Positions 53,843 through 59,443 of a stretch of 64,000 nucleotides of DNA are shown here, one piece after another. Location: NCBI GenBank assembly GCA_011605725.1, contig JAAOZP010000017.1:288001-352000 (forward strand), in the 5' to 3' direction. The DNA is from Nitrososphaerota archaeon (GTDB taxonomy: Archaea > Thermoproteota > EX4484-205 > JAAOZP01). The translations under genes and the position numbers were made by a program. How positions within the stretch are numbered: the first letter of the stretch is position 1; each line of letters starts with the position of its first letter. Below the pieces are notes generated by a model. It saw only the letters and a program-made list of their open reading frames with translations. It had not been told where the DNA came from and made no database searches.

Positions 53843-54685
53843 TTGACAATAGCCGTTTTAACGCATAAGCCATCTTCATACTCATCCATACGCCTTATGG
53901 AGGAAGCAAGCAGGCTGGGTGTCGGCTGCCACTTAGTCTCGTTCAGCGAAACTGCGCTTATTTTGAAGAAGGGTGTTGTCGAGCTGAGGATCCTCCAGGA
54001 TAAGGGTGTTAGAAGAGTGTTTTCAAGGCCAAAAACCCTGTTAAGCCCCGTCTTTCTGTACGCACTCTCCATAACCAGGATCCTGGAGGAAGAGGGTTTC
54101 TACGTGGTTAACCCGTTTAAAGGCTTCATGAATACTTTGGACAAGATGATCACCTACAGGAACCTATGTTTGAAGAGACTCCCGGTACCTGATTCTTTCT
54201 TCACGTCCTCGCAGGAAAGCGTTAGAGAAAAATCGCCACCCTTCTTCTTAAAGCCGATATACGGCTCAAGGGGTAGGGGAGTCAAGCTTGTTGAAAGCCT
54301 GAAAACTTTTCCCAGCCTTGAAGCTCATGGGGCCTGGGTGGTTCAAGCCCCAGCTAAAGACTCGAATTGGGACCTAAGGCTGCTCGTCTTAGAAAACCAT
54401 GTGCTAGCAGCGATTAAAAGGGTTTCAAACAAGCCTGTTACAAACATATCTCAAGGAGGCTTTGGAGAAGCTTTTGAAGGAGACGGGGAGCTTGCGGAGC
54501 TCGCAGTCAAGGCTTCCGAGGCTTTAAGCTGTGTTTTTGCGGGCATCGACATATCTTTCAAGAATGGTGAAGCTTTTATACTTGACGTTAACCCTCAACC
54601 AGATTTCATGGGCGTGGAGAAAGCTACTGGAGTGAACGTGGCTCGAGAGATAATCCGCCACATGCTTTCCAAGGCAGGAGAATAG
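53843..54685 (+). CDS. RimK/LysX/CofF-family ATP-grasp ligase
   Basis: DKMITY, LKPIYGSRGRGV, DLRLLV, TNISQGG, AGID, DVNPQP. Confidence 0.88.
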   Translation: MTIAVLTHKPSSYSSIRLMEEASRLGVGCHLVSFSETALILKKGVVELRILQDKGVRRVFSRPKTLLSPVFLYALSITRILEEEGFYVVNPFKGFMNTLDKMITYRNLCLKRLPVPDSFFTSSQESVREKSPPFFLKPIYGSRGRGVKLVESLKTFPSLEAHGAWVVQAPAKDSNWDLRLLVLENHVLAAIKRVSNKPVTNISQGGFGEAFEGDGELAELAVKASEALSCVFAGIDISFKNGEAFILDVNPQPDFMGVEKATGVNVAREIIRHMLSKAGE

Positions 54686-54687
54686 TC

Positions 54688-55308
54688 TTGAGAACCACTG
54701 GCCTGGTTATAGCGCTTGGACACGGAAGGGAGGGGTTCGTGGAGCTGAGCCAGCTTGAAGGATTCCCTGTTTTCCTCCATGTTGTCAGGAACATTGGAGA
54801 AGTGGTGGAGGAAGTAGCCCTGGCGGTGGCTAAGGATTTTCAAAACGTTTTTGCCCAGGCTGTTTCGGAATACGGCTTCGAAGAATGCAGCATCCTAGGC
54901 TTAAACAATACTGAAGACTTGTTCAGCACTTTTAAAGAATGCTTGCAGAAGGTTTCGGGAGAGGTTGTTGTCACAGCCCCGGCTAACGCTCCCCTCATAC
55001 CTGTCGACATACTTGCCCTTCTAGTGGAGCTCTGCGAGAAAAGAGATGCTGTGCTGGTTAGGGATGTGAAAGGAGGGGTTGACTGGCTCCTGTCAGCCTA
55101 TAACAGGCGTAGCTTTATGGATCTTGTTGAAGCAAGGAGACCAGCCGGCTTCGAAGAACTCGTAGACGGGTTGAGGAGAGTCATGTATATAGCTCACTCC
55201 GGTTTAAAGGATATTGACCCTCTGCTTCTCACGAATATTAGGGTTACTCGTGCTTCAGACATACCTTTCATAGAGAAGCTCCTTAAAGGGGTCAGAAGGG
55301 GGCGTTGA
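54688..55308 (+). CDS. MobA-like NTP transferase (divergent)
   Basis: Overall fold resemblance (PANAPLI, LLSAYNR, IDPLLLTNIRV); canonical LAGG motif eroded. Confidence 0.55.
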   Translation: MRTTGLVIALGHGREGFVELSQLEGFPVFLHVVRNIGEVVEEVALAVAKDFQNVFAQAVSEYGFEECSILGLNNTEDLFSTFKECLQKVSGEVVVTAPANAPLIPVDILALLVELCEKRDAVLVRDVKGGVDWLLSAYNRRSFMDLVEARRPAGFEELVDGLRRVMYIAHSGLKDIDPLLLTNIRVTRASDIPFIEKLLKGVRRGR

Positions 55309-55309
55309 G

Positions 55310-56056
55310 ATGATCAGGATATTCGGGATAAAGTATGACGGCTTCATTAAGAAGGGTGATAACCTTGCTAAAATAACCATAGAGTCACTCCGGAAAGACG
55401 GTGTGCAGGTTGAGAATGGAGACGTGGTTACGCTCACGCATGTCGCGGTTTCAAAAGCAATGGGCTACACGGTTAGGATTAGCGAAGTCAAGCCCAGCCC
55501 CTTGGCGGTAGCGCTTGCAGACAGGCTTTGCAAGCCGCCGGAGGAGGTTGAAATAATACTTAGAGAGAGCAGGGAGATAGTTAGGCTTTCGGGAAGAAGA
55601 ATAATAACTAGAAACAGGGGTGGAATAGTTTGCGCCAATTCAGGCATAGACCTATCTAATGTTGACGGCGGCTTAAGCATGGCTTTTCAACCGAGAAACC
55701 CAGACAGGATCGCTAGGAGGATAAGGAGGCAGTTTCTCGATGAGAATATTGACGTCGGGGTAATAATAACCGACTCTTTTGAAAGACCATTCAGAATAGG
55801 GCAGGTCAACATGGCTATAGGATGCTCAGGAATAGCTCCTATTAAGGATCTTAGGGGTAAGACAGACCTCTTCGGGTATGTTTTAAGGTTTAAAAGAATG
55901 GCGATTGTTGATGAGCTTGCTGCTGCGAGCGAGCTTGTAACAGGCAGTTCTTCAGAAGGCTTCATAGGAGCGTTAATAAAAGGATACTGCTATGAACGCT
56001 CGGATGAGGGTATTAAAAGTATTCTGAGAAGTAGGAAAACAGACTTATTCCTTTAA
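55310..56056 (+). CDS. cofE: Coenzyme F420:gamma-glutamate ligase
   Basis: VSKAMG, CANSGIDLSNV, IITDSFERPFRIG, DLRGKTDLFG, DELAAA. Confidence 0.9.
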   Translation: MIRIFGIKYDGFIKKGDNLAKITIESLRKDGVQVENGDVVTLTHVAVSKAMGYTVRISEVKPSPLAVALADRLCKPPEEVEIILRESREIVRLSGRRIITRNRGGIVCANSGIDLSNVDGGLSMAFQPRNPDRIARRIRRQFLDENIDVGVIITDSFERPFRIGQVNMAIGCSGIAPIKDLRGKTDLFGYVLRFKRMAIVDELAAASELVTGSSSEGFIGALIKGYCYERSDEGIKSILRSRKTDLFL

Positions 56057-57998: not shown

Positions 57999-58547
57999 AT
58001 GGCTAAGAGTAGACCCGTTATACTTATAGCTGGAGAGCTTGGAGCTGGTTGCACAGAGGTTGGGGAACTCGTTTCCAGAAAGCTCGGCGGCATAGAGGTT
58101 TACAATACTGAGAGATTTATAAGAAGCTTGGTTTCCTCACCCCACTTGAGTTTCCAGACTCTCGTAGCAAAATCTGTTTCTGGAGAGATAGAGATAGAGA
58201 AGGTGTTGCAGAGCATGGTTCTAGACGTGGTTAATAATGGGCCAGCAATAATAGAGGGGAGGAGCGCCCTGTTCGTATTGACGCATGAAGTTGATTTGAA
58301 AGTCTTCCTGTATAGCGATTTAGACGGGAGGTTGAAGCATATAGCTGAAAAAAGGAAGACTGAGGACTTGAAGCAGATAGAAGAGGATATTAGAGCCTCA
58401 GACATGGATAGAAGCAGCCTTGTTGAAAGGCTTTACCGCAGGAATTGGAGAGACCCCTTGTTTTACGACATTATGATAAACACTTCTAAGGTGCCTTATG
58501 AAGAAGTAGCTTCATTCATAGTCGAGGCTCTAAAGCTTAAGCGTTAA
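57999..58547 (+). CDS. Cytidylate kinase-like protein
   Basis: IAGELGAGCT, IIEGRSA, DMDR...LY, YDIMINTS. Confidence 0.8.
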   Translation: MAKSRPVILIAGELGAGCTEVGELVSRKLGGIEVYNTERFIRSLVSSPHLSFQTLVAKSVSGEIEIEKVLQSMVLDVVNNGPAIIEGRSALFVLTHEVDLKVFLYSDLDGRLKHIAEKRKTEDLKQIEEDIRASDMDRSSLVERLYRRNWRDPLFYDIMINTSKVPYEEVASFIVEALKLKR

Positions 58548-58609
58548 TCATAATTGAACTCATGCTGAACATTAAAGATTTATATATAACTTAGCGGAAA
58601 ACACTACTC

Positions 58610-58783
58610 ATGAGTGGAGCAGCTACTGGTGGAGAAGCTAAACCTGTGCAGCCAGCTCCAACGCCTGCGCCCGCACCGGCACCGGCACCTGCGCCTGCGC
58701 CTGCAAAGCCTCCGGCTAAGAAGGCTAAAAAGGCGGCTAAAAAGACTAAGAAGGCTAAAAAGGCCAAGAAAGCCAAGAAATAA
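58610..58783 (+). CDS. 57-aa Pro/Ala/Lys-rich histone-H1-tail-like protein (not in ORF track)
   Basis: MSGAATGGEAKPVQPAPTPAPAPAPAPAPAPAKPPAKKAKKAAKKTKKAKKAKKAKK; TTTATATA at 58579, oligo-T at 58797-58808; synonymous codon variation within the repeats. Confidence 0.8.
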   Translation: MSGAATGGEAKPVQPAPTPAPAPAPAPAPAPAKPPAKKAKKAAKKTKKAKKAKKAKK

Positions 58784-58807
58784 GGGTATAAACACGTTTT
58801 TTCTTTT

Positions 58808-59443
58808 TCAGCATAATAATCGGACAATGTCTTTAAGACTGTTAACGACAAACAAGGCTCCATGAGCATCCGGCACAGGAGCTCCTGGTTTAACGCATAA
58901 GATGGATATTCTAACAGCTTTAAACATGCTTTTATCGTGCATACTGTCCCCAACAGCAGCGGCCTCGCTCAACGGAATAGAGTGTTTTCCACAGACTCTT
59001 TTTAAAACATCCACCTTTCTCGAAGGATCCACGTTTATTTCTACTGCTCCTGTGAAACAACCCTTACTGTCGAAAACCATTCTATTAGAGATACATTCGT
59101 CGGCACCAAGGGCTTTACACACTTTTTCAGCAAGCACATCTAAGCCGCTTGAAACAATTACTCTTAAAACCCCTTTCTCTGCAAGCTGGTTGAAGACAAA
59201 ATATGCTTCAGGCTTTATTCGGACACTGGAGAACACCTGTTCGAAGAAAGACCTGTGTAGCCCCCTAGGCCATAGGCTGACATCGTGCTTAACGAATTCC
59301 TCATAGTTTATTTCCCCCCTTGAGAATTTTTCAAGCGCCCTTCTAGCAATATGGTCAGTCCCTAAGAACCTGTGGACGGTTCGCCAGCTGCTCTCCTCTT
59401 CAACGAGCGTACCATCCATGTCGAAGAAAACTATCCTAACCAT
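58808..59443 (-). CDS. HAD-IB phosphatase (phosphoserine phosphatase-like)
   Basis: FDMDGTL, VSSG, K, VGDSMHD. Confidence 0.88.
   Translation of the reverse strand: MVRIVFFDMDGTLVEEESSWRTVHRFLGTDHIARRALEKFSRGEINYEEFVKHDVSLWPRGLHRSFFEQVFSSVRIKPEAYFVFNQLAEKGVLRVIVSSGLDVLAEKVCKALGADECISNRMVFDSKGCFTGAVEINVDPSRKVDVLKRVCGKHSIPLSEAAAVGDSMHDKSMFKAVRISILCVKPGAPVPDAHGALFVVNSLKDIVRLLC

Follow-up and report, generated by a model that had tools for sequence, protein, structure and literature searches.

The window, the whole 64,000-nucleotide stretch of archaeal DNA analysed here, carries a 57-codon gene for a lysine-, alanine- and proline-rich polycation. The substitution pattern shows purifying selection on its peptide, and its three-part design recurs in four genera of one class. 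The host is an uncultured hot-spring archaeon of the Brockarchaeota type. Our preferred reading, which we hold with about as much belief as doubt, is that the product is a disordered three-part polycation whose charge would let it bind nucleic acid, with DNA as the likeliest partner, next to the tail-less histone of its host.

The small gene, its signals and its parts

We delimited the gene, the signals around it and the parts of its product. The features, in window coordinates, are as follows.

57999..58547, + strand: cytidylate-kinase-like (CK-like) protein (PF13189), the 5' neighbour, assigned by Pfam and NCBIfam
58572..58586, + strand: BRE-like TTAAAGA and TATA box TTTATATA, read directly from the sequence
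58610..58783, + strand: coding sequence of the small gene, 57 codons from ATG to TAA, read from the sequence
58610..58639, + strand: N-terminal cap MSGAATGGEA, aa 1-10, Gly/Ser/Thr-rich, with residues conserved across the genus
58640..58714, + strand: Pro/Ala-rich spacer, aa 11-35, including (PA)9, variable in length and always in frame
58715..58780, + strand: polybasic (KKA)n tail AKKAKKAAKKTKKAKKAKKAKK, aa 36-57, with 14 Lys, marked by its dN/dS and its charge
58797..58808, + strand: oligo-T terminator TTTTTTCTTTTT (T6CT5), 14 nt 3' of TAA, read from the sequence

The encoded protein has 57 aa, a mass of 5.6 kDa, a pI of 10.8 and a net charge of +15. It consists of 32% alanine, 28% lysine and 21% proline, with a single hydrophobic residue besides the initiator Met, and its gene is the sole ORF of such composition in the 2.23-Mb genome. 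Only two lysines lie in the first 35 aa ahead of the lysine block, the rest being in the tail, and the S/TPKK motif is absent from the window protein.

The TATA box occupies 58579-58586, with TTAAAGA just 5' of it, and 23 nt separate the end of the box from the ATG. Two other genes of the genome have a consensus BRE/TATA 22 nt 5' of the ATG, and since the spacing at the small gene is as in other genes here, we infer that its transcript is a leaderless mRNA. A scan for a hairpin terminator of the bacterial type found none at the small gene, as expected for an archaeon. The earlier note had described a 57-aa ORF with its own TATA box and oligo-T terminator; our reading of the ORF is identical to that one, and both signals recur in 15/15 orthologues. 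The linker and tail that it described are both present, but it had overlooked the conserved N-terminal cap. On the sequence evidence, the small gene is a real, stand-alone unit that is predicted to be transcribed independently.

A second lysine-rich micro-ORF, MAAKKKATKKKAKKTKKC, encodes 18 aa and lies some 53 kb ahead of the start of the window (G000:C7:234662-234718, - strand) and has a C-rich stretch and then a T-tract on its 3' side. At least two more genomes of the genus contain near-identical copies of this MAAKKK micro-ORF, and one further genome gave a weak match (L097, L098 and L099). The window gene differs from it in lying at a separate locus, in the conserved cap and the Pro/Ala spacer of 25 aa that come ahead of its lysine block, and in its length (57 vs 18 aa).

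Conservation in the genus and selection on the peptide

We compared the orthologous loci within the genus (g1), where the small gene was found in 16 of 17 genomes; the lone genome without it is 70% complete. The 16-nt promoter core TTAAAGATTTATATAT is invariant in 15/15 orthologous loci and lies 22-23 nt 5' of the ATG. Within the genus, each of the 15 orthologues has a T-tract behind its stop codon, as do the versions from two further genera, g4 and g5. Across the 15 proteins, M1, S2, G8 and A10 of the cap are invariant and E9 is nearly so, while their codons vary synonymously. The lysines of the tail are invariant or nearly so, and the spacer differs in length among species, with the frame always kept.

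Substitution rates were calculated for the same 15 orthologues by the Nei-Gojobori method over all pairs. The results showed a dN/dS of 0.14 overall, 0.31 in the cap and 0.035 in the tail, where synonymous sites are near saturation (pS 0.73). Among the six reading frames, pN/pS was lowest in the K/A/P frame (0.26). The antisense mirror frame gave 0.37; it is open in all 15 genus orthologues and is interrupted by stops in the genes of g5. The DNA repeats beneath the coding sequence are imperfect, with a match of 86% at period 6 and 76% at period 9. In metagenomes (four hot-spring runs from four studies), the locus is almost unchanged; the in-gene variants at 58681, 58684 and 58687 are all third-position and synonymous (3/3), and the sole indel is an insertion of 6 nt (CCTGCG), equal to one extra Pro-Ala unit. 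The substitution pattern thus showed purifying selection on the peptide of the small gene, and the earlier proposal that selection acts on the peptide rather than on a DNA microsatellite was upheld by the overall and tail dN/dS, by the sense frame being the best of six and by the synonymous variants.

As a separate observation, the BRE/TATA core is better conserved than the coding sequence, being invariant in 15 species despite the near-saturated synonymous sites.

Diverged versions in other genera of the class

We searched the class by synteny and by design pattern, which were the only routes by which the versions in genera g3, g4 and g5 were found. In g4, which belongs to another family, a 66-aa ORF lies 3' of the CK-like gene and is followed by a T-run; its cap is acidic/polar, its spacer Pro/Ala/Thr/Val/Ser and its tail K/R. 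Genus g5 has a version of 63-64 aa in 3/3 genomes, with its own TATA-like box and T-tracts, and a 54-aa version occurs in one genome of g3, at a contig start. The caps in these genera are acidic or polar and 10-18 aa long, and their character is kept and their sequence is not. Although the other-genus versions are 35-55% identical to the window protein, their net charge is still +14 to +17, and all four lineages have 14-17 K+R within the last 25 aa.

In total, the small gene was found in 21 of the 26 genomes of the class (g1 16/17, g5 3/3, g4 1/2, g3 1/2, g6 0/1 and g2 0/1), and was not found in the other five, which include both single-genome genera (g6 and g2). The earlier note could not have shown this spread over four genera, and a first reading that restricted the gene to one genus was overturned by the g3, g4 and g5 versions.

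The g4 version (L079:2163-2360, + strand) has two features of its own. It carries an SPKK motif within RKSPKKPAKKK, a classic H1 minor-groove and CDK-site motif, and a leader with an SD-like AGGTG replaces the leaderless TATA arrangement.

Profiles built from the genus detected no further member, whether in the class or among 401 Thermoproteota genomes, and a broader profile gave no credible match in the roughly 375 other genomes of Thermoproteota. These profiles are insensitive, and the broader one misses even the window's own copy. Weak matches in genomes outside the class (L015-L021, L122 and L123) were rejected as out-of-frame or GC-rich artefacts. Composition-filtered profile searches failed to connect the diverged versions with one another.

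Database searches and structure prediction

We queried a 15-billion-protein collection with ten versions of the protein and found none of them (eight were exact look-ups, and the searches with the A1 profile and with P0004, the g5 version, were without matches). The ESM Atlas contains the sequence of the window protein, and its best neighbour there scored 0.77, which is under the tool's meaningful level. For annotation, the ten queried versions are missing from a large protein collection, and the diverged versions were reached by synteny and design pattern and not by profiles. A HMMER search against 1.84 billion representatives returned two matches, which were rejected as long, unrelated tandem-repeat proteins with scores inflated by summed repeats.

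The small protein matches no family in Pfam and NCBIfam. At E <= 10, none of the 15 orthologues matched PF00538 (H1/H5), PF07432 (Hc1) or PF07382 (Hc2) in Pfam, and listings such as YnaL and TSGP1 at that threshold were dismissed as chance matches. No match to PF00808 (histone fold), PF01918 (Alba) or PF11520 (Cren7) was found in the small protein either. These searches showed, at the level of sequence, a protein without homology to known families.

AlphaFold2, run with an alignment, gave a pTM of 0.17 and a mean pLDDT of 67, with no fold. A short helix was predicted at residues 47-55 of the tail. Confidence peaked in the Pro/Ala spacer, where neither helix nor strand was predicted. The PDB gave non-significant matches only, to myosin light chain 1 (in its (Ala-Pro)n extension) and to the hinge of OmpA. 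The modelling showed that the small protein lacks a fold and is predicted to be intrinsically disordered. The earlier note had described it as a novel disordered protein with a K/A/P tail and as distinct from the standard archaeal chromatin proteins, and both descriptions hold: the family searches were empty, and its predicted lack of fold contrasts with the folds of those proteins.

Neighbourhood and chromatin genes of the host

The small gene lies directly 3' of the CK-like gene in 14 of the 14 genus loci that were fetched through the CK-like gene, and the same arrangement is found in g4. In g5, a CK-like paralogue is 1.9 kb from the small gene, with the order reversed. The CK-like protein scored 51 bits against the archaeal Cmk equivalog, whose cut-off is 102, indicating a distant relative. 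Its P-loop GELGAGCTEVGE is invariant and reads GAGCT, with Cys at the position expected for the Walker A lysine. The CK-like protein could act as a non-canonical NTPase or be the small protein's partner.

The surrounding genes are of the housekeeping kind (F420 ligase, RimK-like ATP-grasp, NAD synthase, NUDIX, HAD phosphatase and Lhr), and neither a chromatin theme nor ribosomal genes were found in the neighbourhood of the small gene. Two side observations concern this region and its counterparts. At 53843-56056 (+ strand), genes for a RimK-like ATP-grasp protein, a MobA-like NTP transferase and F420-0:gamma-glutamyl ligase stand in a row and look like a coenzyme F420 tailoring cluster. In g5, g6 and g3 (L076, L077 and L078), a CK-like paralogue has on its 3' side a conserved ORF (M..LDP.AM.LL.VKEGD...) that encodes about 93 aa, in the position occupied by the small basic gene in g1 and g4.

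We also surveyed the chromatin genes. The genome has one histone gene (G000:C19:26946-27131) and two Alba genes, and no Cren7 gene was found in it. Histones are present in every genus of the class, and all of them are 67-76 aa long and tail-less; a fusion of histone and tail was rejected accordingly. In such a host, with its tail-less histone, two Alba proteins and no Cren7, the idea of a basic tail acting in trans is sensible. The histone and Alba genes have other promoters and leadered, SD-bearing mRNAs, and no promoter motif common to them and the small gene was found, so that nothing suggests co-regulation. PPK1 and PPK2 were not found in the genome (93% complete), so a polyphosphate-granule target, which had been considered, lost weight.

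Proposed role and alternative explanations

In the mechanism that we propose, the gene would be well expressed from its invariant consensus promoter, probably as a leaderless mRNA. In the product, a stiff Pro/Ala spacer joins a short acidic/polar cap to a (KKA)n tail that bears 14-17 positive charges. The tail would bind a polyanion by charge, neutralising about 14-16 phosphates, equal to 7-8 bp of duplex, and may become helical once bound. Its main target would most likely be chromosomal DNA, which we favour because the host histone is tail-less and polyphosphate kinases were not found. The small protein would thereby supply in trans the lysine-rich tail that is missing from the histone of the class, while the spacer and cap would extend outwards from the DNA and hold its condensation in check or tune it. 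[quoted passage not shown]

A more specific form of this proposal is possible and is put forward tentatively, with more doubt than belief. Here the small protein would be an abundant, free-standing H1-tail-like protein that cooperates with the tail-less histone, neutralising DNA and bridging it, either between hypernucleosomes or along them. As such it would be an independently evolved archaeal functional analogue of a linker histone, with the cap-spacer-tail design tuning nucleoid condensation or phase separation. A review states that archaea have yielded no linker histone homologous to H1 (PMC6136690); a hypernucleosome-bridging protein would, if true, fill that gap. We found no description of a comparable protein in archaea in the literature. 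The small protein is also a candidate for the charge neutralisation or bridging of tail-less archaeal histone fibres.

Some observations speak against DNA as the target. The charge pattern would have equal affinity for RNA, ribosomes and other polyanions; the neighbourhood is one of housekeeping genes, and nothing suggests that histone and Alba are co-regulated with the small gene; and the gene was not found in five of the 26 genomes of the class, though histones occur in every genus. An unlikely but serious alternative is a polycation associated with RNA or the ribosome, either a lineage-specific micro-protein that is ribosomal or chaperones rRNA (like eL41, bS22 and bL37) or a general coat for RNA, and in neither case a chromatin component. 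The small size, very basic character and strong stand-alone promoter are as in small ribosomal proteins, and the CK-like neighbour is distantly related to archaeal Cmk; bona fide archaeal cmk is often found among ribosomal protein genes. The Toxoplasma protein TgH1-like, too, associates with ribosomal proteins (PMC9769792). Against this stand the neighbour's score, which is half the equivalog cut-off, and the lack of ribosomal genes nearby. With their 24-33 aa, the tiny ribosomal proteins are rich in Arg and have no spacer, unlike this Lys/Ala-rich protein with its 25-aa Pro/Ala spacer and acidic cap. Its fast sequence evolution and variable spacer would also be unusual for a protein buried in rRNA.

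Alternatively, and with rather little probability, the protein may be a tether or adaptor, whose cap docks on a partner (possibly the CK-like protein) and whose spacer extends the basic tail to DNA, an anionic membrane or another polyanion. A comparable design is seen in myosin light chain 1, with its K-rich tip and (AP)n arm, and in AlgP and PhaF; the weak PDB matches (to myosin ELC1 in its (AP)n extension and to the hinge of OmpA), the cap residues kept amid synonymous codon variation, and the adjacency to the CK-like gene preserved in two families all agree with it. The cap sequence differs between genera, however, with the acidic/polar character alone kept, the g5 CK-like paralogue lies at a distance and in the opposite order, and neither of the polyphosphate kinases was found. 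It is very improbable that there is no functional protein at all and that the ORF is an incidental outcome of microsatellites with 6- and 9-nt units, or that the true product is the antisense frame or a non-coding RNA. Such repeat periods preserve the frame automatically, and the antisense frame is open throughout the genus with a pN/pS of 0.37. Nevertheless, the tail has a very low dN/dS at near-saturated synonymous sites, none of the other five frames scores as well as the sense frame, and the antisense frame is broken by stops in g5. The gene also has an invariant promoter in the correct orientation, a conserved ATG and a T-tract 3' of the stop, and the design and net charge are kept in four genera. 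A disordered polycation that would bind nucleic acid, most likely DNA, is our preferred reading.

Comparison with known systems

[quoted passage not shown] The C-terminal domain of H1 and the H1-like proteins of kinetoplastids and Toxoplasma are likewise Lys/Ala/Pro-rich, disordered and strongly cationic. The protist proteins are also small and stand-alone, without a winged helix, and the chromatin of their hosts is also histone-based; TgH1-like, of 91 aa, has been linked to ribosomal proteins and the nucleolus (PMC9769792). The small protein has the Lys/Ala/Pro-rich, disordered and basic feature of the H1 tail, which is a compositional likeness and not homology, and its 57 aa hold no winged-helix globular domain of the H1/H5 type (no PF00538 match, pTM 0.17). 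The H1-tail likeness drawn in the earlier note stood as one of K/A/P-rich, basic composition only: no H1, Hc1 or Hc2 model matched at E <= 10, and AlphaFold2 gave no globular domain. An acidic start rich in Ser, Ala and Pro, with a basic block behind it, also makes the small protein reminiscent of the N-terminal domain of H1. Compared with H1 and the protist H1-like proteins, it is an archaeal protein confined to one class, has no detectable homology, is much shorter, carries 14 Lys in a single block and uses a (PA)n spacer of its own.

With AlgP and PhaF of Pseudomonas, Hc1 and Hc2 of chlamydiae and HupB of mycobacteria, whose tail is of the PAKKA type, the small protein shares low-complexity basic K/A/P repeats, which in those bacterial proteins bind DNA or other polyanions by charge and would do so here, and the repeat number varies between strains in that group, as here. 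The bacterial H1-like proteins have folded or helical domains (the AlgP N-terminal domain, the HU fold) or are far longer. In proteins of the AlgP/PhaF type, tandem KPAA repeats follow a helical N-terminal domain (PMC9239181), whereas the repeat here is KKA or AKKAKK, not KPAA, and there is no N-terminal domain. The family profiles of Hc1 and Hc2 do not match. AlgP is located on polyphosphate granules (PMC9239181), and no PPK genes were found here.

The ribosomal proteins eL41, bS22 and bL37 (24-33 aa, Arg/Lys-rich) resemble the small protein as stand-alone small polycations but differ from it in length and composition, with no NCBIfam match. Among PDB entries, the N-terminal extension of the essential light chain 1 of myosin (9gz1_C and 7qio_N) matched best, though non-significantly at E 0.12-0.25. 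Myosin light chain 1 holds a sticky lysine-rich end on a rigid (Ala-Pro)n arm; the likeness is an analogy of design only, since there the order is reversed, the arm is joined to a folded EF-hand protein and the target is actin. What is particular to the small protein is its cap-spacer-tail design, the charge kept class-wide and a host that bears histones.
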